Source: Desulfovibrionaceae bacterium
GTDB taxonomy: Bacteria; Desulfobacterota; Desulfovibrionia; Desulfovibrionales; Desulfovibrionaceae
Direction of reading: 5' to 3'
Assembly (NCBI GenBank): GCA_963667575.2
Contig: CAXXHY010000042.1
Span: forward strand, 115,934-139,933
DNA: 24,000 nt
Position numbers and translations under genes: made by a program. Shown here in pieces: positions 744 through 22,599 of the stretch (position 1 is its first letter; the number at the start of each line of letters is the position of its first letter). Below the pieces are notes generated by a model. It did not search any database. It was given only the letters and a program-made list of their open reading frames with translations, and was not told the DNA's origin.

Positions 744-788
744 TTCGAAAAGCGTTTGAGCGGATTGTTTTGATCCAGGCAGCAGACC

Positions 789-814
789 AAAGAAAAGGGG
801 GCGTTTCCGCCCCC
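789..814 (-). terminator. rho-independent terminator of the 844..1611 gene
   Basis: Stem GGGGGCG (797-803), loop TTTC, stem CGCCCCC (808-814). On the minus strand the hairpin is followed by TTTTCTTT. It lies 30 nt past the stop codon. Confidence 0.75.
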
Positions 815-843
815 TGGTGTATGTTCGTATTTATTGGCCGCCG

Positions 844-1611
844 TCAGCTTTTCCGGCGGATTTTCCACATTCCCAGCAGGCCGATGAGGCCGAAGAGCAG
901 GGCCAGCTGCAAGGGAGTTGCCGCTGGTACGCCGCTGCTGCCGCCGCCGCCGATTTCTCCTGCGCTGTAATCAATGAGCGCGTTGACCAGCTCGTTTCTG
1001 TTGCCTCCATTGGGGCTGTCCAGAACATTGACGTCCAGAATGCTGGTAAGTCTGCCTGTGGGGGCATTGGTCAGCGATCCTGGAGTCCATGCCGCGGCGG
1101 ATCCTGTGGTTGTGCTGCTTGGCTCGTTGGTGATGAAGGTTCCCGTTCCCAAAGCTTCGAATTTGCCGCAGTAAAGGTACGTTACCGAACTGGCTTCGGT
1201 ATTCCACGGAGAATTGATCGTCTGGGAATTATTGCCGGCTGTAGTGCTGGAAATGGTCACGGTTCCGCCGCCGGCGGCAAGAATGGCCGCTGCAACGCTG
1301 TCGTTTCTGGTCTTATAGGTAGTCCCTTCCCCCAAAAGAAAAACCGCTTTGCCACTGGCAAGGAAACTGACCAGAAGCGCAATATCACCCGCGCTGAGAG
1401 CAGTGTTATATCGTATGTCCCAGACCTGATCGTATGCTGAAATGTCCGCGGGCATGGAAGTGGCTTGCGTCACATCCGTATGCCCTTTGGCAACAAGCAA
1501 GGCTTGCAGGTTATTTTGATTGTAATTCTGGTGGACAATGAGCACTTTGTCGGCCAATGCGGGTGTTGCCCAGATTAAAACACATAAAACAATCAATACT
1601 GCTTTTTTCAT
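844..1611 (-). CDS. secreted hypothetical protein with a C-terminal PEP-CTERM/IPTL-CTERM-like sorting signal
   Basis: 255-aa ORF. The SD GAGGGGA lies just upstream of the ATG. Signal peptide: MKKAVLIVLCVLIWATPALA. The body is Ser/Thr/Gly-rich. The C-terminus is GGGGSSGVPAATPLQLALLFGLIGLLGMWKIRRKS (motif, TM helix, basic tail). It has its own terminator. Confidence 0.85.
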   Translation of the reverse strand: MKKAVLIVLCVLIWATPALADKVLIVHQNYNQNNLQALLVAKGHTDVTQATSMPADISAYDQVWDIRYNTALSAGDIALLVSFLASGKAVFLLGEGTTYKTRNDSVAAAILAAGGGTVTISSTTAGNNSQTINSPWNTEASSVTYLYCGKFEALGTGTFITNEPSSTTTGSAAAWTPGSLTNAPTGRLTSILDVNVLDSPNGGNRNELVNALIDYSAGEIGGGGSSGVPAATPLQLALLFGLIGLLGMWKIRRKS

Positions 1612-2408
1612 GCTATCCCCTCGTACATGTTGATTCCCCTAAGTTTTGCGAAATATTCCATTGCCATGTTTTGTATTAAACAAAAATTATATATACTGAT
1701 GCTTTGTATCACATTTTGAAAGACGTTCGATATAACAATGAAAGGCTTCGAACATTCCATTGCTGATTTTTTTAATCTCAATAACAGAATATTTTGTGCA
1801 TCGATTATGCATAAAATTATAAAAGTACATAGGATTTTATAAAAAATTAATAACGTACGACTTAAATAGCAGAACAACTTATACTACAGAACTTAGAAAG
1901 ACCTCAATCTTAACAAGCCAAGACTTAGCAAAGTATCTGTACGTCATCGGATCAGAGTGAGAAAAACTCAATATGTTTACTTTATAGAATACTTTGAGTT
2001 CTGAGTCAATGGGGGGGGAGATTTTGGTTGGTAGAGTGTGCAATATATAAAAGATATTCTCTATTGCCGTGTTTTTAATGGTATCAGCATTTTATGTAAA
2101 AATAAAATGTTAAAATATTAAATTTAGTTATTTACTAATAGGTAAAATATGAAACCAGGAGGACACTGATTTGCTTCTGCTCGGATCTTGTCTAACACTG
2201 ATAGGCATAGGGGATTTATGCCAGATGGCGATTTCTCTGGACCTAAACTAGCTGAAATGTTGAATTTCAGATGTTTGAGGTCTGGAATTGCTGGTCTGCC
2301 ATAGTTCCTGATTCTTTTTTCTCTGGACCTCGTATGCGGCATGGCAGGAAAATTGACTTTTTCTTCGTGCATATATGTTGTTAAATTTTTTACTTGAATT
2401 TAGATCAT

Positions 2409-2434
2409 AAAAAAGGGCCAGCAGGCCCTTTTTT
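2409..2434. terminator. symmetric (bidirectional) rho-independent terminator; serves the 2456..3025 gene
   Basis: AAAAAA-GGGCC-AGCA-GGCCC-TTTTTT. The U-tract is present on either strand. It lies 22 nt past the stop at 2456. Confidence 0.8.
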
Positions 2435-2455
2435 ATATCAATCGAGCGTATTCGT

Positions 2456-3025
2456 TCAGCTTCTGCTGCGTTTGCGCAGAATCACAAAGGTTCCGGCGGC
2501 CAGCAGCAGGGCAATCAGACCGTACTGCCAGGGCGTTGCCGCAGGCGTATCCGAAGCCATGATGATGCCGAAGTACAGGTCACTGCTTGAACTGGCAACA
2601 CCATTCAAAATGAGAGTTCCCCCCGCGTACGTGTCGGACCCGCTGCTATATAAAAGATTAACGGGGGTGGTGGTATTGACAAGATAGAAATTATACGTAC
2701 TGCCGCTGGCAACGTTTACGGATCCGTTCAGATCAATGGTCTGGACGCCGGTTCCGGAAAGCGTAACGGTTTGCATGATTAGATAGTTTCCAGAGGCGGT
2801 GGAACCGCTACGGACATACAGTGTGAATGTGGTAGCGGTGGACGATTGAAAGTTGAGTGTAATGGATTTCACGGTACCGGTGCTGTCTGCCGTCCAGCTC
2901 TGGCCGATCTTGGTTTGAGTGGTGGTGTAACTGGACCCCGAAAAGTAGTTGGTGACATCGGCTTGGCAGACAGAGGCGGAAAGCAGCAAAAGACAGGAAC
3001 AGATGAGTGTCAGACAAGTTTTCAT
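2456..3025 (-). CDS. secreted Ser/Thr-rich beta-type hypothetical protein with the same C-terminal sorting signal as 844..1611
   Basis: I moved the start to the internal ATG at 3025, because GGAAGGG lies 7 nt upstream and the product then begins with the signal peptide MKTCLTLICSCLLLLSASVCQA. The C-terminus is SDTPAATPWQYGLIALLLAAGTFVILRKRSRS. Confidence 0.85.
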   Translation of the reverse strand: MKTCLTLICSCLLLLSASVCQADVTNYFSGSSYTTTQTKIGQSWTADSTGTVKSITLNFQSSTATTFTLYVRSGSTASGNYLIMQTVTLSGTGVQTIDLNGSVNVASGSTYNFYLVNTTTPVNLLYSSGSDTYAGGTLILNGVASSSSDLYFGIIMASDTPAATPWQYGLIALLLAAGTFVILRKRSRS

Positions 3026-3260
3026 GATTAACCCTTCCTGGAATATAGTGAAATATTTTTTTAATACGAATTTAATATACTTATGGCTAAACAAAGTAAA
3101 TATTTAACTATTGTAGGATATTTCCTTCAAAAGGGTAGGTTTTTTGGGGGAAAGTTCCGAGAAACCAAAAGGTGGAAAGGAAAGGCGTTGCCTGAGGCTT
3201 ATGTAAAAAGACAAAAATTGCAGGGGTATTTCCGCCAGGGCACTTGATAGGGAAGTGATG

Positions 3261-3306
3261 GAAAAATGCAGAGCCGCAGAAATCGTGAAAGTTCCTGCGG
3301 CTCTGC
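3261..3306 (-). terminator. rho-independent terminator downstream of the small ORF 3360..3518
   Basis: Perfect 12-bp stem: GCAGAGCCGCAG (3268-3279) pairs with CTGCGGCTCTGC (3295-3306), with a 15-nt loop. On the minus strand it is followed by A-TTTTT. Confidence 0.6.
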
Positions 3307-3359
3307 TGTTTCAAAAATGGAGCTCAAATCCTGCGGCGCTCCATCTGTGGAAAATAGAA

Positions 3360-3518
3360 TTATGCGGCATTCATGGCTGTCCCGGCTTGATTTATACCCG
3401 GAGCGCTTGAAAATGGTTCGCCTTCAAAGGTTTTTCCAACAGGCGCATATTCTGCATCGCAAAAACTGGCAACAAGGAGCAAAAGGCAGCAAATGATGCC
3501 GACAATGCACAATTTCAT
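3360..3518 (-). CDS. small (52 aa) putative secreted peptide
   Basis: ATG at 3518 is preceded by GAAGG 6 nt upstream. The N-terminus MKLCIVGIICCLLLLVASFC looks like a signal peptide, followed by a 32-aa polar tail. A hairpin terminator lies downstream. The ORF is short, so coding status is not secure. Confidence 0.45.
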   Translation of the reverse strand: MKLCIVGIICCLLLLVASFCDAEYAPVGKTFEGEPFSSAPGINQAGTAMNAA

Positions 3519-4032
3519 AACAAACCTTCGTATTGGATAAAAGTTCAATAAAAAAACGCTTTTAGTCCCTCCGATCGCGTAAAGTCAATATTGATAATAT
3601 ATTAGTTTGTTCTGCTTGATATATTGAACTTTTTACTCAGGAACGCATAAAGCAAGAAAAACGAGTAAAAAAACTGTAATATCCTTTGGTTGTCGAAGGG
3701 AGAAAAAGGGCGGGAAAATTTTGTTTTTTTCGGCCCAACAGAAAAAACCGGGAAAAAAGCACTGGCCGAAATAAAAGGTTTGGGGTAAAGACTCTGAATC
3801 GAAAGACGAATGCACCTGTGGAGCCTGTTCAGACGCCTGGCGTCTCAATTGATCTCTTCTTATCCGGCAGGTAATCGGTGCACTTTGAACAGCCCGTATG
3901 GGATACCCGCGATGGTATGTCCGACCGTGCTTTCAGTCACGCCCCTGATTGTAAGCCCCTTAGTTCCGGTTGTGGCAGCCCCTGCCCTCGCGGGTATTTT
4001 TTTGCCCTGTGAACAGGGGCCGTGATACGGGT

Positions 4033-4611
4033 TCAGGGCCGGTCGTTTCTGCCCCAGAGCGTAAAACTCTGGCCGGGGAGAAACTCATGTGCGCCGGTCT
4101 GCGTATAACCTGCATCCTCCATGATGCTGCGGATTTTTCCCAGCGGCGAGACATGGCCGAACAGGGTGATGGGACTCCAGAGCGGTCCCGGCAGGTAGTC
4201 GATGATGGCGACCCGCCCCTGGGGCTGGAGATGGTTTCTGAGGCCGGCGAAGCATTGGCCTGGGTTCTTGATTTCGTGGAACACGCTGCGGGTGAAGACC
4301 AGGTCCAGACCTGCCTCTGGCAGGGGCAGGGGCGTCTGGGAGGCCAGCACGGGTTCGATATTCCGCAGGGCCTGTTTGCGGGATTGCCGCATCACGAAAT
4401 CCAGATATTTTTCCTTGATGTCCGCCGCGTAGACCTTGCCCGTAGCACCCACCAGCCGGGCGAACGCCATTGAGTAATAGCCGCCGCCGGATCCGAAATC
4501 CAGAACGGTCTGTCCGGGTTGCAGTGCGAGGGCCTGCAGGATGGCATCGGCTTTTTTGTTGGGACGGGCTGCTTCGTAATTCAGGGCATGTAGAAAAAGA
4601 TTGCCGAACAT
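4033..4611 (-). CDS. class I SAM-dependent methyltransferase
   Basis: 192-aa ORF. Motif I is VLDFGSGGGYYS, with acidic post-I AADI and LDLVFTRSVFHE. GGAG SD lies 7 nt upstream of the ATG. Confidence 0.85.
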   Translation of the reverse strand: MFGNLFLHALNYEAARPNKKADAILQALALQPGQTVLDFGSGGGYYSMAFARLVGATGKVYAADIKEKYLDFVMRQSRKQALRNIEPVLASQTPLPLPEAGLDLVFTRSVFHEIKNPGQCFAGLRNHLQPQGRVAIIDYLPGPLWSPITLFGHVSPLGKIRSIMEDAGYTQTGAHEFLPGQSFTLWGRNDRP

Positions 4612-4633
4612 TGCTTTGCTCCGGTTGCTGATG

Positions 4634-4661
4634 AAATAAAAAGGGAGGCCTTTGCCTCCCC
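4634..4661 (-). terminator. rho-independent terminator of pspABC
   Basis: The minus strand reads GGGAGGC-AAAG-GCCTCCC followed by TTTTTATTT. It begins 44 nt after the pspC stop. Confidence 0.8.
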
Positions 4662-4704
4662 GTTATTCATATCAATTATGCATGGTGCGTCTTTGTGTCG
4701 CGCT

Positions 4705-5103
4705 TCAACTGCGGCTTTGAAAACGGCGTTCCCAGTCAAAATCCCTGCTGGTGACAATATGTTCCATACGCTGGATGCGCCGGTCCAGGTTGTCGAATTT
4801 GCGTTTCAGCCGCTGCAGTGCCATGCCCCGTGAACCCGTGTAGGAGTTGTAGAACTCGCGTTCGGAGGTGTCCTTGAAAGGCACCACGGGTTCGGGTTTC
4901 ATGAGCAGGCCGCCCAGCAGGTAGAGCCCGGCAGCGGGCCAGAGTCCGGTGAACAGCAGCAGCAGCACGGCAACCACGCGGACCCAGAATACATTCAGGT
5001 CGAAATAGCTGGCCAATCCGCGGCAGACCCCCAGGATCATGCCCTTGCGCGAGCGGTACAATCCGCGATCCTTTCTGTCCGTTCTATTCCGTACGCATGC
5101 CAT
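4705..5103 (-). CDS. pspC: envelope stress response membrane protein PspC
   Basis: LYRSRKGMILGVCRGLASYFDLNVFWVRVVAVLL matches the PspC N-terminal domain pattern. It has one TM helix. The C-terminal RIQRMEHIVTSRDFDWERRFQ parallels E. coli PspC ...REMERYVTSDTFTLRRKF. GAGGAG SD is present. It overlaps pspB by 20 nt. Confidence 0.85.
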   Translation of the reverse strand: MACVRNRTDRKDRGLYRSRKGMILGVCRGLASYFDLNVFWVRVVAVLLLLFTGLWPAAGLYLLGGLLMKPEPVVPFKDTSEREFYNSYTGSRGMALQRLKRKFDNLDRRIQRMEHIVTSRDFDWERRFQSRS

Positions 5104-5380
5104 CGTCGTTCTCCTCGTAGTTGTCCCGGCGGCTCTTGCGTCCGTTGCCCTGGTCGCTGTCCTGGTCCAGAATCAGCGTTTCCAGGGCCTCGATACGATT
5201 TTCCATCCGGTTGAGGCTGTTGTAGATCTCCTGGATCATACGCGCTTCGCTTTCGCTCTCTTCGCTGTCCTGACCCGAGCCGTTGCCTCGCAAGGCTTTG
5301 AATACCAGAACGGCAAGCAAGGTGAGCACGAGTACGCCTATCAGCATCATGCCCATGACGGCTCCCATGAAATGAAACAT
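5084..5380 (-). CDS. pspB: PspB-like envelope stress response membrane protein
   Basis: It has a single N-terminal TM helix, then ARMIQEIYNSLNRMENRIEALETLILD, which resembles PspB ...RMRERIQALESILD. It sits between pspA and pspC, with a GGAGG SD. It carries an extra acidic C-terminal tail. Confidence 0.7.
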   Translation of the reverse strand: MFHFMGAVMGMMLIGVLVLTLLAVLVFKALRGNGSGQDSEESESEARMIQEIYNSLNRMENRIEALETLILDQDSDQGNGRKSRRDNYEENDDGMRTE

Positions 5381-5445
5381 AGATACAGCCTCCTGAATGA
5401 ATTTTCCGCTCTATCCTGCCACGCAAGCCTCGCGGCTGCAAAGCA

Positions 5446-6111
5446 TTACTTGCCTGCTTCGCGTTCCTTTTTCAATTCCTCGAGCTCCTGCTGGATCTCG
5501 TCTTCGCCTTCGAGCAGAGCGAATTCATCGGCCAGGTTGGGTTTGCGGGTCGGATTGATGATTTCGGCTTCGGCTTCCATACGCTCGATACGCTGTTCGA
5601 ACTGCTCAAAGCGCATCATGGCGTCGGAACTCTGGGCCTTGCGGATGTCCTGCTGGGCCTTTTTCTTGGAAGAGGCGCGGATGTGGCGCTGCACCAGCAC
5701 GCGCTGCCGCTCCTGAGCGGTCTTGAGCTTTTCTTCCAGCTGCATGATGTCGTCCTGGGACTGTTTGATCAACTCGTCCAGGTAAGCGGCTTCAGCCTGC
5801 AACTGTTCCACCCGTTCTTCCCAGCGGCGCTTTTCCACCAGGGCTTCCTTGGCCAGGTCTTCGCGTCCCTTGTCCACCGCCAGCACGGCCCGGTCCTTCC
5901 AGGTCCGTACGTGCTGCTGCAGGTCGTCCAGTTCGCGTCCGACCTTTTTGCGATCGGCCATGGTACCCGCGCAGGAGGCCTTGATTTCCACCAGGGTTTC
6001 CTCCATTTCGCGGATCATCAGGCGGACCATCTTTTCCGGATCTTCAGCCTTGTCCAGCATGGCGTTGATGTTGGATCCGACTATGTCTCTGAAACGTGTG
6101 AAAATACCCAT
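5446..6111 (-). CDS. pspA: phage shock protein A (PspA/IM30 family)
   Basis: I moved the start to the ATG at 6111, because AAGGAGG lies 6 nt upstream. MGIFTRFRDIVGSNINAMLDKAEDPEKMVRLMIREMEETLVE is near-collinear with E. coli PspA [42 protein letters not shown]. The rest is coiled-coil. Confidence 0.95.
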   Translation of the reverse strand: MGIFTRFRDIVGSNINAMLDKAEDPEKMVRLMIREMEETLVEIKASCAGTMADRKKVGRELDDLQQHVRTWKDRAVLAVDKGREDLAKEALVEKRRWEERVEQLQAEAAYLDELIKQSQDDIMQLEEKLKTAQERQRVLVQRHIRASSKKKAQQDIRKAQSSDAMMRFEQFEQRIERMEAEAEIINPTRKPNLADEFALLEGEDEIQQELEELKKEREAGK

Positions 6112-6152
6112 GACAGCCTCCTTTGGCATGATTGCGTTCGTTTTCTTTCTTA

Positions 6153-6169
6153 AAGCAGAAGACGTGCCA
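6153..6169 (-). promoter_or_regulatory. sigma54 (-24/-12) promoter of pspABC
   Basis: The minus strand reads TGGCACGTCTTCTGCTT. GG and GC are 12 nt apart, as in the consensus TGGCACG-N4-TTGCW. It lies ~40 nt upstream of the pspA ATG, and the divergent gene encodes a sigma54 activator. Confidence 0.8.
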
Positions 6170-6303
6170 AATTAAGTCAAACTGCTAACCTACTGAATTA
6201 ATGAGAATAGTATAATTGTCTTGGAATGATTAGTGTGGTAAAATTTACTTTATAATAGTTGAAACAATAAAAAGTGCATAATTTTACCAGCAATGGAGGC
6301 GGC

Positions 6304-7332
6304 ATGGCACCGGATAATTTGCCGAGGCACGCGTTGGATATCGAACCGCTGGGCAGCTCCGAGGTTTTTCTGGAGTTCAGCGAACAGCTGACCCAGGCCG
6401 CCCGGGTGGAGCGTCCGGTGCTGCTTGTGGGCGAGCGGGGCACGGGCAAGGAACTGGCCGCGGCCAGGCTGCATTTTCTCTCCGAACGGTGGGAAGGCCC
6501 CTGGGTGGCCCTGAACTGCGCGGCCGTGGCCCCGGAGCTGGCCGAATCCGAGCTGTTCGGCCACGAAACCGGCGCCTTTACCGGCGCGGTGTCCCGGCGC
6601 ATTGGACGATTTGAGGCAGCGGATACGGGCACTCTGTTTCTGGACGAACTCGGGCAGCTCTCCCTGGAGGCCCAGGGCAAAATACTGCGTACGGTGGAGT
6701 ATGGGGTGTTCGAGCGTATCGGCAGTACGCGGACACTGCGTACTGATGTGCGGGTGGTGGCGGCCACCAATGCGGACCTGCCTGCCATGGCGGCCAAAGG
6801 GGAATTTCGCGCGGACCTGCTGGACCGGCTCAGCTTTCTGGTGCTGACCCTGCCGCCCCTGCGCGCGCGTGGTGAGGATATCCTGCTGCTGGCCAACCAC
6901 TTCGCGCAGCGTATGGCGCAGGAACTCAGGTTGCCGGGGTTGGTGTATTTCGGACCGCGCGCCCTGGAGCAGCTGGCCGACCATCCCTGGCCCGGCAATA
7001 TCCGCGAACTCAAGAACACGGTGGAGCGTTCGGTATTCCATACGCAGGGGGAGGAGATCGAAACCCTGGATCTGGACCCATTTGATTCGCCCTGGCGGAT
7101 GGGCGGAACAGATACCACATCCCGTACGCGGCAGATTTCCGAAGCGTCTCCATTGTCGATGGAATCTTTGCCGTCCGATCTGGATGGGGTTTTGCGGGAC
7201 TACACCATCGGGGCGCTGCGTCAGGCTCTGGAAGAGAGCAGGCACAATCAACGTACCGCGGCCGAACGCCTGGGCCTCAGTTACAACCGCTTTCGCGGAT
7301 TGTACCGGAAGTACGAGGCGGAGCTGTCGTGA
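6304..7332 (+). CDS. pspF: sigma54-dependent transcriptional activator, PspF-like (no N-terminal regulatory domain)
   Basis: Start taken at ATG 6304 (GGAGG at 6295-6299). Walker A is GERGTGKE, the GAFTGA loop is HETGAFTGA, Walker B is LFLDELG, plus PWPGNIRELKN. The C-terminal Fis-type HTH is NQRTAAERLGLSYNRFRGLYRKY. It is divergent from pspA. Confidence 0.88.
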   Translation: MAPDNLPRHALDIEPLGSSEVFLEFSEQLTQAARVERPVLLVGERGTGKELAAARLHFLSERWEGPWVALNCAAVAPELAESELFGHETGAFTGAVSRRIGRFEAADTGTLFLDELGQLSLEAQGKILRTVEYGVFERIGSTRTLRTDVRVVAATNADLPAMAAKGEFRADLLDRLSFLVLTLPPLRARGEDILLLANHFAQRMAQELRLPGLVYFGPRALEQLADHPWPGNIRELKNTVERSVFHTQGEEIETLDLDPFDSPWRMGGTDTTSRTRQISEASPLSMESLPSDLDGVLRDYTIGALRQALEESRHNQRTAAERLGLSYNRFRGLYRKYEAELS

Positions 7333-12003: not shown

Positions 12004-12957
12004 ATGTCCGAATCAGAATCTTTCGAACAGGCCAAGGATATAGCGGGGCGGATCATCGACAACATCCGGACGGTGATGCGCGGGCAGGACCGGGGCATAC
12101 GGCTGTTGCTGGCGGCGTTTGCCGCCGGGGGGCACGCGCTGCTGGAGGATGTGCCGGGCACGGGCAAGACCACTCTGGCCAAGTCCCTGGCCCAGTCCTT
12201 CAAGGCAGAATTCAAGCGCGTGCAGTTCACTCCGGACCTGCTGCCCTCGGACATTCTGGGCGTGTCCGTGTATGAGCAGGGAGAGGCCCGTTTCCGCTTT
12301 TACAAGGGGCCCATTTTTGCCAACATTCTGCTGGGCGATGAGATAAACCGGGCTTCGCCGCGTACGCAGTCCGCGTTGCTGGAGGCCATGGCCGAATTTC
12401 AGGTCAGCATGGACGGCAAGCGTATGCGCCTGCCAGAGCCTTTTTTCGTTGTGGCCACCCAGAATCCGCTGGAGTTTCACGGCACCTATCCGCTGCCGGA
12501 ATCCCAGCTGGACCGTTTCGCCGTCAGCTTCGGCCTGGGTTATGTTCCGGAAGAGGAGGAGATAGCCATCCTCACCGAACAGACCCGCAGCCATCCTCTG
12601 GAACGGCTCAGACCCTGCGCGGAGCTGGCGGACGCTATGCTGCTGCAGGAGGCGGTCCGCGGCATCCGGGTGGACGGGCAGATCAAGGAATACATCGTCC
12701 GTCTGGCCGGGGCCACGCGTACGGCGTCGGGCATCCGCCTGGGAGCCAGTCCGCGCGCCTCGCTGATTCTGATGCGGATCAGCCAGGCCCTTTCGCTGCT
12801 GGACGGCTACGCCTTTGTCACTCCCGACGCCGTGCAGGAGGCCGTTGTTCCGGTGTTTTCCCACCGTCTGGCCCTGGAGCAGCAGGCCAGTTTTTCCGGC
12901 CAGAGCGCGGAGCAGCTTCTGCGCGAGATCATGGGCTCTCTGCCGGTTCCCTCCTGA
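12004..12957 (+). CDS. MoxR-family AAA+ ATPase
   Basis: Walker A is DVPGTGKTTLAK, Walker B is LLGDEINRASP, plus ATQNPLEFHGTYPLPESQLDRF and GASPRASL. GAGGA SD is present. Confidence 0.92.
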   Translation: MSESESFEQAKDIAGRIIDNIRTVMRGQDRGIRLLLAAFAAGGHALLEDVPGTGKTTLAKSLAQSFKAEFKRVQFTPDLLPSDILGVSVYEQGEARFRFYKGPIFANILLGDEINRASPRTQSALLEAMAEFQVSMDGKRMRLPEPFFVVATQNPLEFHGTYPLPESQLDRFAVSFGLGYVPEEEEIAILTEQTRSHPLERLRPCAELADAMLLQEAVRGIRVDGQIKEYIVRLAGATRTASGIRLGASPRASLILMRISQALSLLDGYAFVTPDAVQEAVVPVFSHRLALEQQASFSGQSAEQLLREIMGSLPVPS

Positions 12958-12972
12958 CACGCCGAACTATTC

Positions 12973-14421
12973 ATGGACAGCCTGCGTTTTCTTTTTTTGG
13001 ACCTCCGGGACTTTGCCAGGCGGCGCTACGGGCCGCTTCTGGCATCCTTCTGGCGTACGGGGCAACGCTCCTGGATGCGGTTCACCACCATGGGCCGCGT
13101 GGTGCTCGTAGGCTACGGCATGACCCTGTTGTTTGTGGTCAATACGCGGACCAGCATGAACTACCAGCTTTTTGTGCTGCTGCTGGTGCTGCTCGCCGTG
13201 GCCTTTGCCGGCAGCATGCTCATGAGGCGGCAAAAGCGCTCCATGGCTGTGCAACGTACGCTGCCCCAGTATGCGACCGCGGGCGAACCTTTCAGCTATG
13301 CAGTGACTATCCGCAACACCGGTACGCGGGAAATCGGCCCGCAGCAGCTCATGGAATTTCCGCGCATGGTCCGTTTCACGGATCAGGGCAGCGCAAAGCA
13401 TGATCCTGGTGAATCGGAGAAAATCCGCCGGCACGTTCGGATCCGTTGGCGCGCCCTGCTTGAACGGACTGCTGATCCCGAGGCGGACGAACCGCTGATT
13501 GCGCAGCTTGCCGCCGGAGATAGCGCCACCGTACGTCTGGACGTGCGCGCGCCGGCGCGCGGACTGCTGGAGTTCGGATCCGTATTGCTGGCCAGGCCGG
13601 ATCCGCTGGGTTTGTTTCAGGCGTTCGCGGTGCTGCACCGTGAGGACCGGCTGCTGGTGCTGCCGCGACGCTATGTGCTGCCGCCCCTGGAACTTCCGGG
13701 CGGGCGGCGGTTTCAGCCCGGAGGCGTCAGTCAGGCCGCATCCGCGGGAGAGTCCGGGGAGTTCGCGTCATTGCGGGATTACCGCAGGGGGGATCCCCCC
13801 AAGCATATCCACTGGCGCAGCTGGGCCAAGACAGGTCGCCCCATCGTCAAGGAATACCAGGACGAATTTTATACGCGCCATGCCCTGGTGCTGGATACGT
13901 TTCCGGACCCCAAGCGACTGCCCGGCAGCCGCGATGCCGCCCTGTTCGAGGAGGCCGTATCCGTGGCGGCATCCCTGGCGGTGCTGGAACACGGGCAGGA
14001 CAGCCTCATGGACCTGCTTTTCGTGGCCAACAAGGCCTACCAGTTCACGGCAGGGCGCGGTCTGGCCCAGTCCGGGCAGATGCTCGAGGCCCTGGCCGCG
14101 GTGGGGCCCTGCCTGGAGCAGCCCTTTGAACTGCTGCAGCGTACGGTGCTGCGTCAGGCCGCCCGCATCTGCGGCTGCATCTGCGTACTGCTGAACTGGG
14201 ACACGGCCCGGCAGGAAATGGTCCGCGGGCTGCTGGCCGAAAACGTGGAGCCCCTGGTGTTCGTGTTGCTGGATCAGCGGGCGCCTCAGCCGGATCCCGG
14301 CCCGCTGCAAGCAATGCCCGGAAGGTTTCACCCCTTGCGTATGGGGCGGATTCAGGAAGATCTGCAACGTGCGGGCAGCGGTTTTGCGCAACGTCCCGGA
14401 ACCTCCGGAGGCCATGCCTGA
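12973..14421 (+). CDS. DUF58 domain protein with two N-terminal TM helices (usual partner of MoxR)
   Basis: SLRDYRRGDPPKHIHWRSWAKTGRPIVKEYQDE is the DUF58 core motif. The gene starts 16 nt after the moxR-like stop. At 482 aa it is longer than the ~300-aa DUF58 proteins I recall. Confidence 0.85.
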   Translation: MDSLRFLFLDLRDFARRRYGPLLASFWRTGQRSWMRFTTMGRVVLVGYGMTLLFVVNTRTSMNYQLFVLLLVLLAVAFAGSMLMRRQKRSMAVQRTLPQYATAGEPFSYAVTIRNTGTREIGPQQLMEFPRMVRFTDQGSAKHDPGESEKIRRHVRIRWRALLERTADPEADEPLIAQLAAGDSATVRLDVRAPARGLLEFGSVLLARPDPLGLFQAFAVLHREDRLLVLPRRYVLPPLELPGGRRFQPGGVSQAASAGESGEFASLRDYRRGDPPKHIHWRSWAKTGRPIVKEYQDEFYTRHALVLDTFPDPKRLPGSRDAALFEEAVSVAASLAVLEHGQDSLMDLLFVANKAYQFTAGRGLAQSGQMLEALAAVGPCLEQPFELLQRTVLRQAARICGCICVLLNWDTARQEMVRGLLAENVEPLVFVLLDQRAPQPDPGPLQAMPGRFHPLRMGRIQEDLQRAGSGFAQRPGTSGGHA

Positions 14422-16393
14422 GATGAAACCGCCGCTGTTCTGTCTTTCCGCCGCATTGCTGTTTTGGGGCTGGCTTTCGGGCTTTCTGGTGCCTGCGCTG
14501 GTCATGGCGCTGCTGCTGGAGCTGGCCGGGCCGTCGGGCATCCGGCTGCGTATCCGGCTCAGAGATCTGAACCGGATTGCGGATTTGTGCGTATTGCTTG
14601 TCACAGGGGCCATTGTCTATCTGTTTTTCACGCCCATGGACAATGACGCCATTCTCCCGCTCATCGTGACCCAGTGGAGCCCCATGTTGTTCTATCCGCT
14701 GGCCCTGGCCCAGGCCTATGCGGAAAGTGAAACCTTCGCACTGGTGGCGCTGCTGCCGGTGCTGGGGGCGCGCCGGAGCAGGGAACTGGACCGGAAACCG
14801 CAAAAAGTTTCTGGCGCCAATCTGCTGTTCCCCTATTTCGGCCTGGTGCTGCTGGCAGCGGGCAGCGCGAATCAGCGCTATAACCTGTACTATACGGTGC
14901 TGTTCGTGCTGGTGGCCTGGGGGCTATCCGCAGCCCGTCCGAAATATGCGGGGCCTTCCGGGGCCTCATGGAAAGGGTGGCTGCTCTGGGCCGGGCTGCT
15001 TCTGGCCTGCGGTTACATCGGCGATGTGGGGCAGGAGAAGCTGGACGAACAACAGGCCCGCTTGCGCGGCTGGTCGGCCGGAGCAGACCCGTACCATCGC
15101 GAGACATCCATGGGCAGCATGGGGACGCTCAAGCTCTCAGACAAGATTCTGATGCGCGTACGCCCTGGCCCGGGGCGCAAAGGGCCGCCGCATCTGCTGC
15201 GCGAGGCCAGCTACAATTTTTATCGCGGGCTCTCCTGGGAGGCTGCCACCGGCTTTTTCGGCGTGGTGCCTTCCAAGGATGCGGACAAGACCGACTGGAT
15301 TCTGCATTCGGGGCTCGATGCGGACGGCTACGTGAGCATCTATCGCTATTTCCCGCGTCGTCTGGGATTGGTCCCGGTGCCCGGCGGCACCACCAGAATT
15401 TCGTCGCTGCCGGCCAGGGAAGTCCTGCTGAACAGTCTGGGCGCCATCAAGGCGGAGCGGGCGGACGGCCTGTGCGCCTACAAGGCCTGGTATATTGAGG
15501 GTGGTTTTCTGGAAGGCGGTCCCAATCCGGTGGATGAGGTGGTGCCTCCGGCGGACCGTCCGGCCCTGGAAAAGATAGCTCAAGACAGCGGACTGGATAC
15601 CGCGGCTCCGGAAGATGTCTCCAGGACACTGCTGGAATATATCTGGAAGCACTACAGCTATTCGCTGCGTCTGGAACGGAGCGACACCAAGCTGGATCCG
15701 TTGAGTGATTTTCTGTTGAATACGCGCAAGGGGCATTGCGAGTATTTTGCCACGGCCGCGGCCATGCTGCTGCGCCAGGTGGGGATTCCCAGTCGTTACG
15801 TGGTGGGCTATGCGGTGGTGGAATATGATCCGGAAACGGATTTTTATATTATCCGCGAACGCCACAGACACGCCTGGGCCATTTATTACGCAGGGTACAG
15901 CTGGCATGTGCTGGATGCCACACCGCCGGACTGGAGCGCGCTGGAATACCGCGAACCGGGGTTCTGGCAGAAGCTGGATGATTTTCGTTCGCGCGTGATA
16001 TTCACCCTGTCCAGCTGGCGCTGGCTGGAGGAACGGGGCAAGGTCAAGACAGGCCTGCTGCTGGGAGCCCTGGCCCTGGGGCTGGTGATGGCGGTTCGTA
16101 TTTTGCGGCAACAGGGCAAACAAGGGCTTCGCCGCATACGCCGCAAGAAAAATCCATACGGGGCCGAGGAAAAAGAACTGCCCTTTGCCAGAGTGGAAGC
16201 CCGGCTGCGCAGGCAGGGTTTGGAACGTCCGGAGTGGGAGCCGTTGAAACGCTGGCTGCAGGAAAACAACCAGGAAGCCCTGCTGCCCGGAGTGCGGCTG
16301 CATTACAAACAGCGTTTTGATCCCGAGGGATTCAGCGAAGCAGACCTGCGGCAATTGGAAAAAATCGTGGAGGAATGGCTGCGACAAAGGTAG
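14414..16393 (+). CDS. transglutaminase-like membrane protein
   Basis: The Cys-His-Asp core is GHCEYFATAAAMLLRQVGIPSRYVVGY ... RHRHAWAIYY ... WHVLDATP. There is a multi-TM N-terminal region and one TM helix after the core. The start is ambiguous: ATG 14414 overlaps the DUF58 stop, and ATG 14423 lies 1 nt after it. GGAGG is at 14407-14411. Confidence 0.88.
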   Translation: MPEMKPPLFCLSAALLFWGWLSGFLVPALVMALLLELAGPSGIRLRIRLRDLNRIADLCVLLVTGAIVYLFFTPMDNDAILPLIVTQWSPMLFYPLALAQAYAESETFALVALLPVLGARRSRELDRKPQKVSGANLLFPYFGLVLLAAGSANQRYNLYYTVLFVLVAWGLSAARPKYAGPSGASWKGWLLWAGLLLACGYIGDVGQEKLDEQQARLRGWSAGADPYHRETSMGSMGTLKLSDKILMRVRPGPGRKGPPHLLREASYNFYRGLSWEAATGFFGVVPSKDADKTDWILHSGLDADGYVSIYRYFPRRLGLVPVPGGTTRISSLPAREVLLNSLGAIKAERADGLCAYKAWYIEGGFLEGGPNPVDEVVPPADRPALEKIAQDSGLDTAAPEDVSRTLLEYIWKHYSYSLRLERSDTKLDPLSDFLLNTRKGHCEYFATAAAMLLRQVGIPSRYVVGYAVVEYDPETDFYIIRERHRHAWAIYYAGYSWHVLDATPPDWSALEYREPGFWQKLDDFRSRVIFTLSSWRWLEERGKVKTGLLLGALALGLVMAVRILRQQGKQGLRRIRRKKNPYGAEEKELPFARVEARLRRQGLERPEWEPLKRWLQENNQEALLPGVRLHYKQRFDPEGFSEADLRQLEKIVEEWLRQR

Positions 16394-16406
16394 GGGGGCG
16401 TGGGGT

Positions 16407-16578
16407 GTGGGGCTAATGCCATGTCGCCCTTACAGGGCTTTTCATTTAATTCATGCGTGTTACCCAGGGCTGCACCCTGGGCTGTAAATAACCCGCCCCG
16501 TTGGGGCTAGGGTCTTGGCGATGCGGGATAAATTGCAACCTGCTTAGGGGGTGTACCTGGCAGGGTGCTTGTGCATCG
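16407..16578 (+). repeat. hairpin-rich intergenic repeat, copy 1
   Basis: It contains GCCCT-TAC-AGGGC, CCCAGGG-CTGCA-CCCTGGG and GCCCC-GTT-GGGGC stem-loops. It starts 14 nt after the transglutaminase stop. Confidence 0.85.
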
Positions 16579-16641
16579 TCTCTTTGCCCGCTTCAAAAAT
16601 ATTGTTTGGTGCTCCGGGCTTCAGGCTTCAGGCGTCGGGGG

Positions 16642-16813
16642 CCGGGGCTGGGGCCATGTCGCCCTTACAGGGCTTGTATTTTGTTGCGGTCATCATACCC
16701 AGGGCTGCACCCTGGGCTGTAAATAACGCGCCCCGTTGGGGCTAGGGTCGTGGCGCTGCGGGATAAATTGCAACCTTCTCTGGGGGTGTACCTGGCAGGG
16801 TGCTTGTGCATCG
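16642..16813 (+). repeat. hairpin-rich intergenic repeat, copy 2 (tandem, 235-bp period)
   Basis: By hand alignment, 16696-16813 against 16461-16578 shows 6 mismatches in 118 positions and no indels. The 23-nt head GCCATGTCGCCCTTACAGGGCTT is identical (16653-16675 vs 16418-16440). The 20-nt spacer between head and core is diverged but has the same length. Confidence 0.85.
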
Positions 16814-17048
16814 GATCCATGTCTGTCTTCGTCCCTAGGCCTACCGCATTTATTTTTCGCAGTGCACAGTGGGGTGTCATCTCCATTATTTATCCCGCAA
16901 TGTATTCCTATCGCAACGTGCATACCCTCGCGCATGGCATTCCCTTTTGCTTACCTCTGATGCAACATTTCCCTTTTGGATTTTCACTCCTGCGGATTTG
17001 TACCCATCTTTGGCATTTTGCTCCCCCAGTCGCATCGCATCCGGGGCA

Positions 17049-17140
17049 AGCCCCAACGGGGCGGCTTATTTATAGCCCAGGGTGCAACCCTGGGGGTGGG
17101 TGGGCGATGTTTTTTTGAGCTCTGAAGGGGCGACATGGCA
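17049..17140 (-). repeat. partial inverted copy (copy 3) of the same repeat
   Basis: 17049-17094 equals the reverse complement of 16463-16508 with 3 mismatches in 46, all outside the two stems. GGGCGACATGGCA at 17128-17140 equals the reverse complement of the head. The 33-nt head-to-core spacing is conserved. Confidence 0.8.
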
Positions 17141-17187
17141 GATGACAATCACTGTATACGCCGCATCTGCAGGGCCGGAAAAAGCGT

Positions 17188-17218
17188 AAAAAAAAGCCTG
17201 CCGAAACGTTCGGCAGGC
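17188..17218 (-). terminator. strong rho-independent terminator of 17247..17897
   Basis: The minus strand reads GCCTGCCGAA-CGT-TTCGGCAGGC (10-bp stem) followed by TTTTTTTT. Confidence 0.85.
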
Positions 17219-17246
17219 CATGGAAAGCAGCGGCGGATGGGCTTTG

Positions 17247-17897
17247 TCAGCGGAAGAACCGCGTGTTTTCCTCGATTTTGATCAAAATGGGAATCATCAG
17301 GAACAGCACCAGGAAAATCAGGGAGAAGCATAACAGCATCAGAATATACGTGCGTTCTTTATAGGAAGCGTCCCAGCGTCCTTTTTCCTGGCGTACGAGC
17401 TGGATGAAAATCTTGTTGTACTTGTGAGCCATGTTCAGGAAAAGCGCTTTTTGGTCGACGCCCTCGAGGTTGAGATCCTTTTGTTGTTCCAGCCAGTCCT
17501 TGTAGCCGCCCAGAAAGTCGTACAGACCGTCCACAAAACGGGTCCGGCGGTTGATGGGCGTATTGGCCAGCCATTCTACGATGGTTTCGTAGCTTCCGGT
17601 GTCCAGATTATAATCTTCAATGATGTTCTTGATATGCGAGTCGTACTTGTTGGTGACGGCCCGCTTGGTGTCGATCATGGAAAAGTCGAGCTCTTTCTTG
17701 CTCTGATTGGAAACGTCCAGGTAGGGCAGAAATTCGTCGAATTCCGGTTCCTGCAGTCTGTCCGGGGCTGCTCCGAGATACATGAACAGACCAATCACAA
17801 AAAGAATAAGGCATAGCGATGCTATGCACAGAGAAGTTATTTTTCCAAATCGCAGAAACAGGTTGGTCAACCTGTCGGATTTGCCGGAGTCGAACAT
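17247..17897 (-). CDS. hypothetical membrane protein (N- and C-terminal TM helices flanking a ~140-aa soluble domain)
   Basis: 216-aa ORF. GAGGTG SD lies 6 nt upstream. The TM helices are ITSLCIASLCLILFVIGLFMYLG and YILMLLCFSLIFLVLFLMIPILI. GC content looks lower than in the neighbours. Confidence 0.75.
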   Translation of the reverse strand: MFDSGKSDRLTNLFLRFGKITSLCIASLCLILFVIGLFMYLGAAPDRLQEPEFDEFLPYLDVSNQSKKELDFSMIDTKRAVTNKYDSHIKNIIEDYNLDTGSYETIVEWLANTPINRRTRFVDGLYDFLGGYKDWLEQQKDLNLEGVDQKALFLNMAHKYNKIFIQLVRQEKGRWDASYKERTYILMLLCFSLIFLVLFLMIPILIKIEENTRFFR

Positions 17898-18154
17898 TCC
17901 AGCACCTCACTTGCTTGTTGGTTTATATTTCATCTCCCGGATATGAAAGACCCTAACGGATATCCGGGGCACTTGCAAAGGACAGCATATATGCCTTTCG
18001 ACCGGTCAAATCAAGGGATTCATTTTCATAAAAATCAGTATGCAGCATGGGCGCATACGGCCCTGTCCGTTGCGTTCCTCCGCCAATGATGCGTATAATG
18101 ACCTAGCATGAAGTCGCAAATAACGTAAACCTTGGAACATGCAAAGGCGGAACA

Positions 18155-19807
18155 ATGGAGCTGAGCACTCTCAAACAGATCGGCCGCTTCAATGACATCG
18201 TTCTGACGCTGTTCAAATACGGTTTCCACGACACGGTCGAACGCATCGGACTGCCCTCGGGCATGTTCAAACGCGAACACGAAGGCCCCTACGCCAGGGA
18301 ACACGCTTTTGCGCGCGTACGGCTGATGCTGGAGGAACTGGGCCCCACTTTCATGAAGCTGGGGCAGATTCTGTCCATGCGTCCGGACCTGGTGCCGGCG
18401 CCCCTGTGCGATGAATTGCGCCGCCTGCAGGATCAGGCCCCTGCCGCGCCGTATGAAGAAGTTCGCGTCATGGTGGGGGATGCCCTGGGGCGCCCGCTGG
18501 AGCTGGTGTTCAAGGAGTTCGATGAAGAGCCCCTGGCAGCGGCTTCTCTGGGGCAGGTGCACCGGGCCGTGCTGCGGGAAGAGGACCGGGAGGTCGCCGT
18601 AAAGGTGCTCAAGCCCGGCATGCGCCGGACCATGGAACAGGATCTGCAGATTCTGGTTACCCTGGCCGATCTGCTGGACGGACGAATCAGCGCCCTGCGC
18701 AATCACGACCTTCCGGCGATCGTGGCCGAACTGCGCAAGGGGTTGCTCCGCGAACTGGATTACGGCCACGAGGTCCGCAACATGCGGATGGCGCGCAACA
18801 ATCTGCAGAGCATGCGCGAAGTTCTCGTACCGGGCGTGCTCATGGAATATTGCAACGACCGTATCATCACCATGGACATGATCCGGGGCAAAAAGCTGGA
18901 CGAACTGGGGGATGAAAGCGACTCGGCCCGGGCGCACTGGGCGTCGGTGGCGCTGCGCTGCCTTACCAGCCAGGCCATGGGCGACGGCTTTTTCCATGCC
19001 GATCCGCATCCGGGCAATGTGCTGTTTCTGCCCGAGGGCAGGGTGGCTTTTCTGGACTGGGGCATGGTGGGCAGGCTGACGGCCAACATGCGCCACGCCC
19101 TGGTGGACCTGCTGGTGGCCGCGTCCGAACGGGACAGCGAACGCGTGGTCAACGTGCTTTTCCGGCTCACCAACCACCGGCGCAACGTGAACACCCTGGC
19201 CGTGGAGCAGGAGGTTCTGGATATCCTGGACCTCGGACTGAATACCGCCTGCAAGGACATTCACGTAGGGCAGCTGCTGCAGGAACTGCAGCACGCGGTG
19301 GACAAGTACGGTCTGCAGTTTCCGCCTTCCCTGACCATGCTGGGCAAATCCATCCTGACCACCGAGGGCCTGGCCCGCAGGCTCTGTCCGGAAGTGAACT
19401 CCATTGCCGAAACCGCTCCCCTGTTCAAAAAGCTGGCAAAGGAACGCTACTCCCTGCGCACGGGCGCGCGTACGCTGCGCAATCTGCTTACGGGGTTTCT
19501 GGACCTGCAGCGCAGCCTGCCCGAGCGGCTGGACATGCTTTTCAAAAAGGCCGAACAGGGCGAGGTCAGCGTCCGGTTCAAGCATGAGAATCTGGAAGGC
19601 ATCCGCGAGACTCTGGATCAGGCGAGCGAACGGCTGGCTCTGGCCGTGATTCTGGGCGCGCTGTTCGTGGGGTCGTCCTTGCTCATCACCACGGGCCTGG
19701 AGCCGCTCATCTTCGGCTATCCGGCTCTGGGGGTCATCGGCTTTCTGATCTCCGGCTTTTTTGGTTTGCTGCTGGCCATCACCATCTTTCGCCGCAAAAA
19801 GTTCTGA
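18155..19807 (+). CDS. ABC1/UbiB-family atypical protein kinase
   Basis: GPTFMKLGQILSMRPDLVPAPLCDELRRLQDQAP is the ABC1 signature. Also present are AAASLGQVHRA, VAVKVLKPG, FHADPHPGNV and LDWGMVG. There are two C-terminal TM helices. Confidence 0.9.
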   Translation: MELSTLKQIGRFNDIVLTLFKYGFHDTVERIGLPSGMFKREHEGPYAREHAFARVRLMLEELGPTFMKLGQILSMRPDLVPAPLCDELRRLQDQAPAAPYEEVRVMVGDALGRPLELVFKEFDEEPLAAASLGQVHRAVLREEDREVAVKVLKPGMRRTMEQDLQILVTLADLLDGRISALRNHDLPAIVAELRKGLLRELDYGHEVRNMRMARNNLQSMREVLVPGVLMEYCNDRIITMDMIRGKKLDELGDESDSARAHWASVALRCLTSQAMGDGFFHADPHPGNVLFLPEGRVAFLDWGMVGRLTANMRHALVDLLVAASERDSERVVNVLFRLTNHRRNVNTLAVEQEVLDILDLGLNTACKDIHVGQLLQELQHAVDKYGLQFPPSLTMLGKSILTTEGLARRLCPEVNSIAETAPLFKKLAKERYSLRTGARTLRNLLTGFLDLQRSLPERLDMLFKKAEQGEVSVRFKHENLEGIRETLDQASERLALAVILGALFVGSSLLITTGLEPLIFGYPALGVIGFLISGFFGLLLAITIFRRKKF

Positions 19808-19921
19808 TCCGGCCCGTACGTACTCTGCATTTCACTCGAGCATGGATACCGGGACGGAGGTGGAGTCTTATCCTGCCCCCGTCCCAGGTGTTTTTATGGA
19901 TCTCCCTTGCAAAAAACAGAC

Positions 19922-19944
19922 TTTTCTAGTAATTATCTAGAAAA
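19922..19944. promoter_or_regulatory. perfect 8-bp inverted repeat (possible operator) upstream of the GAF/GGDEF-like/TPR gene
   Basis: TTTTCTAG-TAATTAT-CTAGAAAA, ending 27 nt before ATG 19971. Confidence 0.35.
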
Positions 19945-19970
19945 AATTTGTGTCATAAAGGGAATTCCCC

Positions 19971-22364: not shown

Positions 22365-22443
22365 ATTCAGCCTGTTGCGCGTCCGGCGGCTTCAGCTGCG
22401 TTTTCGAACGCTTCTGCCGGACCTGCCCTGGCGGAATCGCCCC

Positions 22444-22474
22444 TTGACAAAGCCCCCATCGAGCCCATTATATG
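22444..22474 (+). promoter_or_regulatory. possible sigma70-type promoter for miaB
   Basis: A perfect TTGACA lies at 22444-22449, followed 18-19 nt later by TTATAT/TATATG (22468-22474). This is ~125 nt upstream of the miaB ATG. The -10 element is weak. Confidence 0.35.
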
Positions 22475-22599
22475 CCTCCAGCCGGAAATTTGCCTAAACC
22501 GGCCTTGATGCCCCTGCATGAGGCATGGTATGTTCTGTATAAGACGACTCAAGAAACCTTGTGCCGGGATCGTCAGGAAGCAACTGGATCGGATGTATC

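Follow-up and report, generated by a model that had tools for sequence, protein, structure and literature searches.

In a 24,000-nucleotide stretch of the genome of a Desulfovibrionaceae bacterium (GenBank assembly GCA_963667575.2, contig CAXXHY010000042.1; hereafter the window), two minus-strand genes that lie 845 bp apart encode otherwise unrelated proteins with the same kind of C-terminal tail: a short motif, [V/T]PAATP[L/W]Q, then a hydrophobic transmembrane (TM) stretch, then a basic cluster. An earlier note on this DNA had placed the tails at 847-930 and 2459-2548 and had proposed that they are a variant sorting tag. Both placements are correct and refer to the minus strand (the plus strand at the same coordinates gives unrelated peptides).

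The first gene (844-1611, minus strand) encodes protein 1 (P0001, 255 residues), which consists of a signal peptide, a GATase1-like/GIFT-like alpha/beta domain, a Gly/Ser linker and the tag. The putative signal peptide (MKKAVLIVLCVLIWATPALA|D, residues 1-20; 1552-1611) has an n-region with KK, a hydrophobic core and A-L-A before D21; like that of protein 2, it looks like a typical Sec signal peptide, as judged from the letters alone. An AlphaFold2 model built on a seven-sequence alignment (predicted local distance difference test, pLDDT, 81.8) displays a class-I glutamine-amidotransferase-like fold, with a helix at residues 3-13 and the alpha/beta domain running from residue 21 to about residue 216. 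The best Foldseek matches in the PDB are the N-terminal (“GIFT”) domain of IFT52 (E = 6e-7), OST48 and class-I glutamine amidotransferases, and no Pfam or NCBIfam family matches above its cut-off. The linker AGEIGGGGSSG (residues 217-227; 931-963) is disordered, with a pLDDT below 50 across residues 222-231, and varies in length among homologues through insertions and deletions. The tail itself, VPAATPLQLALLFGLIGLLGMWKIRRKS, is composed of the signature motif VPAATPLQ (residues 228-235; 907-930), the 14-residue hydrophobic segment LALLFGLIGLLGMW (865-906; model helix 233-254) and the basic cluster KIRRKS (847-864), followed by the stop codon at 844-846.

The second gene (2456-3025, minus strand) encodes protein 2 (P0008, 189 residues from the ATG at 3025): a signal peptide, a beta-rich domain and the tag. 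Its open reading frame (ORF) reaches back to a TTG at 3094 (2456-3094, minus strand, 212 residues), and the exact 189-residue form is present in the protein collection. The putative signal peptide (MKTCLTLICSCLLLLSASVCQA|D, residues 1-22; 2960-3025) is kept in the orthologue P0009. The tail, TPAATPWQYGLIALLLAAGTFVILRKRSRS, carries the motif TPAATPWQ (residues 160-167; 2525-2548), the 16-residue hydrophobic segment YGLIALLLAAGTFVIL (2477-2524; model helix 165-188) and the basic cluster RKRSRS (2459-2476), with the stop codon at 2456-2458. The low-confidence model of the protein (pLDDT 53) is beta-sandwich-like and has no Foldseek match at E <= 1e-3, so we claim no function for it. Each gene has its own terminator-like hairpin on the 3' side. 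That of gene 1 (796-815, minus strand; an 8-bp stem with 7 G-C pairs and a T-rich tail) was returned by a consensus scan, and that of gene 2 (2409-2428, minus strand; GGGCC-TGCT-GGCCC, then TTTTTT) was read from the letters and is not in the list from that scan.

Two side observations concern protein 2. It gives a sub-threshold Pfam match to the second domain of ribophorin II (15.8 versus 23.4 bits), and ribophorin II and OST48, to which protein 1 bears a likeness, are both oligosaccharyltransferase subunits; this is probably a coincidence, and might otherwise be a hint at glycan binding. Upstream, at 3360-3518 on the minus strand, a 52-residue ORF (MKLCIVGIICCLLLLVASFCDAEY...) has a signal peptide identical to that of protein 2 at 14 of 24 positions, and many DNA positions agree with gene 2 across the part that encodes it. 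This ORF, which is absent from the protein collection, may be the remnant of a paralogue or may encode a small secreted peptide.

The tails are all that proteins 1 and 2 have in common, as the earlier note had maintained. BLASTP aligns the tails only (E = 8e-4), the mature parts showing no match, and a profile-profile comparison of the two families (hhalign) likewise aligns the tails only. The folds of the carriers differ as well, protein 1 being alpha/beta and GATase1-like and protein 2 beta-rich. The tripartite layout holds in both, each tail ending 0 residues from its stop codon; the hydrophobic stretch, previously put at about 18 residues, measures 14 in tag 1 and 16 in tag 2. A six-frame scan detected no third copy of the tag in the window.

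We considered whether two ordinary C-terminal helices could share PAATP by coincidence. Among the C-terminal 35 residues of 22 window proteins, tags 1 and 2 are the sole pair with a 5-mer in common, and 94 of 5000 composition-preserving shuffles of these residues (1.9%) yielded any pair that shares a 5-mer plus the residue at +2. An empirical background, chosen on purpose to be unfavourable, put the expectation at 0.11; it was dropped in favour of the shuffles because its loci had been chosen for PAATPWQ and included duplicates. Taken alone, the shared motif is thus only modestly significant, and it is the context that carries the argument: the motif is placed alike with respect to the TM segment and the basic end, each of the two proteins has a signal peptide, the coding DNA of the two motifs differs by one base at the W/L position (TGG versus TTG), and the motif is kept in orthologues under synonymous change and is in register with a known class of sorting signal, IPTL-CTERM, as described below. 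Chance is therefore an extremely improbable explanation.

The conservation is clearest for protein 2, which has a single homologue in 5.8 billion clusters: P0009 (54% identity), encoded on the closed 6.3-Mb chromosome of a relative, ena:ERZ21862645:ctg38573c (6,308,443 bp), and in two other assemblies. Its tail, AVPAATPWQYGLLALLLAGCGLAALRRYRRS, contains VPAATPWQYGL, and the ten residues PAATPWQYGL are identical in the two proteins. Because this stretch is kept despite a six-residue insertion or deletion in the linker just upstream and synonymous changes in several tail codons, the comparison indicates purifying selection on the tail peptide. For protein 1, the closer homologue P0002 (49% identity) ends in SVPFASFWQLAFF...RRKGSQR and reads VPFASFWQ at the motif. 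The earlier description of PAATP as an invariant core was therefore too strong: across the four tails P, A and Q are invariant, PAATP occurs in three, position 7 is W or L, and the family signature is nearer to [VT]-P-x-A-[TS]-x-[WL]-Q. Since tags 1 and 2 differ at position 7 by the TGG/TTG exchange only, W is probably the ancestral state there, as in IPTLxxW.

Several further homologues of protein 1 (36-41% identity) place this signature among the known signals. TIGR04174, the IPTL-CTERM (IPTLxxWG-CTERM) model, accepts the tails of P0003, P0004 and P0006 with 34.9, 26.2 and 24.5 bits (cut-off 20.5); that of P0005 also reads VPTLSAW and stays below the cut-off at 15.6 bits. The full-length alignment of protein 1 runs through these tails and sets VPAATPLQ beneath VPTLSAW and APALGEW, with V-P at positions 1-2 and W or L at position 7. 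This is the extended homology through a trusted instance that has been used as a criterion for such signals (PMC3237569), here provided for protein 1 by the full-length alignment. When the tail profiles were compared with hhalign, VPAATPWQ aligned to VPTLSAW without gaps (probability 81%, P = 1.2e-5). The PAATPWQ tails also weakly match NF033207, “midcut-by-XrtH”, in the part of the model (positions about 31-64) that describes an internal IPTL-like signal, with E = 0.006 for the tail of P0009 and 0.13 for tail 2.

The closest relationship of the tags is thus to IPTL-CTERM, in agreement with the earlier note: protein 1 has homologues whose tails are true IPTL-CTERM signals, placed where its own tag is and in register with it. 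Like IPTL-CTERM (TIGR04174, PF18203), the tags are tripartite C-terminal signals. The shared motif opens with [I/V]-P (positions 1-2), carries a small or hydroxyl-bearing residue at position 5 and W at position 7, where tail 1 has L, a single nucleotide away from W, and is followed by a TM segment of similar length and an Arg/Lys cluster. The window tags differ in having A-A...Q rather than T-L...G/A at positions 3, 4 and 8, an extra Pro at position 6, and only one or two detectable copies per genome. IPTL-CTERM occurs on surface proteins, for example on the S-layer protein of Methylomirabilis (PMC8671808).

Of the eight attributes listed for C-terminal sorting signals (bioRxiv 10.1101/2023.06.07.544157), seven are present in the tails, among them the position at the very C-terminus, a hydrophobic stretch followed by a basic cluster of 2-5 residues and an N-terminal signal peptide, the last by inspection. 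For the other, occurrence in multiple copies per genome, the two copies in the window are at most a minimal case. The carriers share the signal only, as the alignment of proteins 1 and 2 through their tails alone demonstrates. The eighth attribute, a homologue with a different sorting signal (bioRxiv 10.1101/2023.06.07.544157), is found in P0003, P0004 and P0006, which bear IPTL-CTERM, and in P0002 with VPFASFWQ, the wider attribute being homologues in other lineages with a different signal or none.

On balance, and with moderate confidence, we favour the reading that the tails are a lineage-restricted, drifted signal of the IPTL-CTERM class, with a signature of about [VT]-P-x-A-[TS]-x-[WL]-Q, which would be read by an XrtH-like exosortase encoded elsewhere. 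NCBIfam pairs IPTL(xxWG)-CTERM with exosortase H (XrtH), a pairing that appears in our analysis through the model name “midcut-by-XrtH” only. For proteins 1 and 2 the following course of events is inferred by analogy with other tripartite systems (PMC3237569), including where each is cut, by which enzyme, and where it ends up. Each protein would be exported by the Sec pathway via its N-terminal signal peptide. The C-terminal helix would then keep it in the inner membrane for a time, the basic cluster lying on the cytoplasmic side, until a polytopic enzyme of the exosortase family, most likely XrtH-like and encoded elsewhere, cuts at or near the signature motif. The mature domain, GATase1/GIFT-like alpha/beta in one case and small and beta-rich in the other, would be set free, or anchored anew at the cell surface or within the matrix.

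A number of observations weigh against this reading. Protein 2 is without IPTL-tailed homologues, its only homologue (P0009) bearing the same PAATPWQ tag, so the homology argument rests on protein 1. Neither window tail matches TIGR04174 or PF18203 at E <= 10, and the tail of P0009 reaches 12.3 bits with TIGR04174 over the TM part only. Key positions of the IPTL motif are altered in the window tails (T3 to A, L4 to A and G8 to Q). Classic exosortase systems usually have many substrates, and only one or two such tails are detectable per genome here. Finally, no exosortase-family gene was seen in the window, in the 5.8 kb by which the sister contig L156 (99.94% identical to window positions 12334-24000) extends its right side, the only DNA of this genome covered beyond the window, or beside P0009 in the closed 6.3-Mb relative, where no sortase-like neighbour is found; and the related loci covered (L001-L004, L124, L150, L151 and L153-L156), which together span about 200 kb, showed neither an exosortase nor an archaeosortase nor a rhombosortase. 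For the window this bears out the earlier note, which had reported no sortase-class gene there: exosortases, archaeosortases and rhombosortases are missing from it even at permissive thresholds. A deacetylase-like gene near a syntenic locus was considered as a sign of an exosortase locus and rejected (16 versus 276 bits with the deacetylase model of the XrtA system).

The scarcity of the tag was seen in larger collections as well. No word filter was applied when a 33-position profile made from four seed tails, including those of P0002 and P0009, was run against 1.84 billion representative proteins, and there were eight matches at E <= 1e-3: the four seed tails, three loosely similar tails on unrelated proteins (P0010, GVPAATPLNL...; P0013, AVPAASPLEL...; P0012, PVPANSPLGL...) and a spurious N-terminal match (P0011). 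None of the three loosely similar tails passes a curated CTERM model, and no sortase gene is present on the contigs that encode them; nor was an exosortase found near the spurious match or near the IPTL-tailed P0014. A tail query against an index of 5.8 billion proteins brought up 14 candidates and no match. In JGI metagenomes (241 million records), a degenerate DNA pattern that covers both window tags gave 21 chance matches and no C-terminal tail. A DNA scan of GTDB genomes for [VTAIM]PAATPWQ gave at least 119 stretches, of which those listed were all chance matches without a TM tail, the relevant genomes not being reached. On the 6.3-Mb chromosome, P0009 is the sole tagged gene found. The profile search, which was exhaustive, found no tagged proteins beyond two ortholog groups, and there is thus no large paralogous family. 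This looks like one half of the outcome that the earlier note had itself named as a refutation, and a tag family that has a substrate set and an enzyme to itself, as the note implied, is not supported.

Such small numbers would also suit a rival reading, in which the tail is a plain, uncleaved membrane anchor. Proteins 1 and 2 would then be bitopic inner-membrane proteins with a periplasmic domain, and the motif would be conserved as an element next to the membrane, a helix breaker for instance, or possibly as an O-glycosylation site of the PglL type: PAATP resembles the Ala/Pro-rich WPAAASAP, a documented minimal O-glycosylation motif of Neisseria PglL (PMC4850263), a resemblance that serves as a lead only. 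A TM segment with a positive-inside cluster also looks like a simple stop-transfer anchor, and neither the window nor the related loci covered yielded a processing enzyme. However, the motif stands at an equal distance from the TM segment in unrelated proteins, and homologues bear a curated sorting signal exactly there, in register. The stretch of only 14-16 residues and the end of the protein right after the basic cluster are moreover typical of a sorting signal and not of a functional anchor. We therefore consider an uncleaved anchor unlikely, while keeping it in view.

Returning to the sorting-signal interpretation, we compared the tails with the curated models of NCBIfam 20.0 and Pfam, TIGR04174 and TIGR02595 among them. 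Neither tail is accepted by any CTERM model, in line with the earlier note's view that they are not ordinary members of a known family. The best sub-threshold match of all is that of tail 1 to TIGR04143, VPXXXP-CTERM (18 bits versus a cut-off of 30, E = 0.002, model positions 1-24 of 25). This raises the alternative that the reader is not XrtH but belongs to another, perhaps new, exosortase/archaeosortase subfamily, as a bacterial counterpart of VPXXXP-CTERM/archaeosortase B (ArtB) or a small dedicated exosortase paralogue would. VPXXXP-CTERM has the same tripartite layout, V-P-A-A-T-P fits V-P-x-x-x-P literally in tail 1 and in P0009, and P0010 (VPAATPLN), P0013 (VPAASPLE) and P0012 (VPANSPLG), which pass no curated model, also read V-P-x-x-x-P-L. 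Yet 18 bits are far under the cut-off, the tails of protein 2 (TPAATP) and P0009 do not match TIGR04143, and neither tail 2 nor P0002 (VPFASF) fits the motif. VPXXXP-CTERM/ArtB has also been described from methanogenic archaea, the Methanosarcinales (PMC9723798), whereas the gene set of the window is bacterial (pspF, which encodes a sigma-54 activator, pspABC and MoxR-DUF58-transglutaminase). As the IPTL-CTERM register in true homologues is the stronger evidence, we regard a reader from another subfamily as quite unlikely.

The remaining known systems fit less well. PEP-CTERM, processed by the exosortases XrtA and XrtB and typical of surface and matrix proteins of environmental diderm bacteria (PMC3237569), has the same architecture and the same presumed enzyme superfamily. 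Its genomes usually hold many substrates, however, and the window tails lack Pro-Glu-Pro, so the earlier note was right that the motif is not PEP; the match to TIGR02595 (13 versus 16 bits, model positions 7-23) covers the TM part only. We also weighed a reader outside the exosortases, such as a rhombosortase, a CPBP/myxosortase-type protease or a Gram-negative sortase, since several unrelated enzyme classes read tripartite tails (PMC3237569) and the isolated tail 2 nominally reaches the cut-off of the LPXTG anchor model TIGR01167 (16.0 versus 15.9 bits, model positions 13-33). An LPXTG anchor was rejected for tail 2: the match spans only the TM and basic parts, there is no LPXTG motif, and nothing is matched when the full protein is used. 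As the motif has neither the Gly-Gly of rhombosortase substrates nor the Cys of the myxosortase class, and no such enzyme is encoded in the window, a non-exosortase protease is very improbable.

A further reading takes the tag for a true orphan: a genus-restricted signal with one or two substrates per genome and a dedicated enzyme of its own, perhaps an exosortase of a distinct clade or some other intramembrane protease, which is not encoded beside the substrates. The signal would have evolved from an IPTL-CTERM ancestor as motif and enzyme changed together. Orphan CTERM signals such as WGxxGxxG-CTERM (NF038039), which is mentioned in bioRxiv 10.1101/2023.06.07.544157, are similar in being short, tripartite C-terminal homology domains to which no enzyme is assigned. 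Unlike NF038039, the window tag has a plausible parent class, IPTL-CTERM, identifiable through the homologues of its carriers, and it is therefore probably not a true orphan; the orphan account as a whole strikes us as decidedly doubtful. With few carriers and no adjacent enzyme, the tagged proteins fit better as outlier substrates of a general system than as parts of a new dedicated one.

C-terminal sorting tags decide which proteins reach the bacterial surface or the biofilm matrix, and annotation pipelines recognise them via curated motif models only. Being invisible to every current model, the window tails would leave both proteins annotated as plain hypothetical membrane proteins, and the tag could seed a new hidden Markov model. 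That one homologous family should end in IPTL-CTERM in some lineages but in VPxA[TS]x[WL]Q in another illustrates, on a small scale and concretely, how sorting motifs drift, and it offers a natural test of the motif positions that an XrtH-type enzyme needs. In practical terms the impact is modest, given how rare the tag is and that neither a function for its cargo domains nor, in the DNA covered, the enzyme that reads it was found.

Both tag genes lie in an AT-rich, variable island of 3.3 kb (744-4032), between a xanthine/uracil permease gene and the block of S-adenosylmethionine (SAM) methyltransferase and pspCBA genes. GC content drops to 29-36% between 1500 and 2400 and to 36-47% between 3000 and 3900, the window as a whole having 57%. 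The surroundings are conserved: PspA of the window shares at least 90% identity with its counterparts in the 6.3-Mb genome and on a 4.26-Mb contig, ena:ERZ22147072:ctg24720l, conserved genes show 80-84% nucleotide identity to these two relatives, and the gene order permease - methyltransferase - pspCBA - pspF ... MoxR-DUF58-transglutaminase - UbiB is kept in both. The gap between the permease and methyltransferase genes differs, being 357 bp in L155 (12091-12448) and 1.3 kb with an unrelated ORF in L153 (12115-13449). Neither gap holds a tag gene, neither of these syntenic loci holds a sortase, and no nucleotide match to window positions 744-4700 was found in these relatives. P0009 lies about 630 kb from psp on the 6.3-Mb chromosome, from which P0002 is absent. 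These comparisons place the tag genes in the variable gene pool.

Two features in the vicinity of P0009 may be mentioned as side observations. Immediately downstream of it is a gene for a LonC-type protease, and near it in the 6.3-Mb genome (L002, 14531-18569) an MBOAT acyltransferase and two DUF459/GDSL proteins are encoded in a grouping reminiscent of polysaccharide O-acetylation.

In the window, the island is followed by the SAM methyltransferase gene (4033-4611), which comes after pspC as pspA, pspB and pspC are read, and by a complete phage-shock locus (4705-7332) consisting of pspC (4705-5103), pspB (5084-5380), pspA (5446-6129) and, divergent from pspA on the plus strand, pspF (6304-7332). 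This locus is kept in the relatives. The other products encoded in the window are the C-terminus of the permease, an acyltransferase-3, a BCCT transporter, MoxR-DUF58-transglutaminase, UbiB and GGDEF/TPR proteins, and a comparison with Rfam found no RNA gene in it. The non-coding region 16402-17140 contains two direct units of about 177 nucleotides (16402-16578 and 16637-16813; 86% identical, 235-nucleotide spacing) and a third, inverted partial copy at 17049-17094 with 46-nucleotide arms that are 91-93% complementary. These repeats look MITE-like (miniature inverted-repeat transposable elements) or REP-like (repetitive extragenic palindromes), and the sister contig L156 has them arranged in the same way. 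At 19948-22364, finally, the window has the GGDEF/TPR coding sequence broken into three or more ORFs, which in L156 (7639-10026) form one 795-residue gene. Given that single gene in a contig of 99.94% identity, with 7 gaps over 11.7 kb between the two sequences, the split suggests frameshifts or insertion/deletion errors in one of the assemblies.

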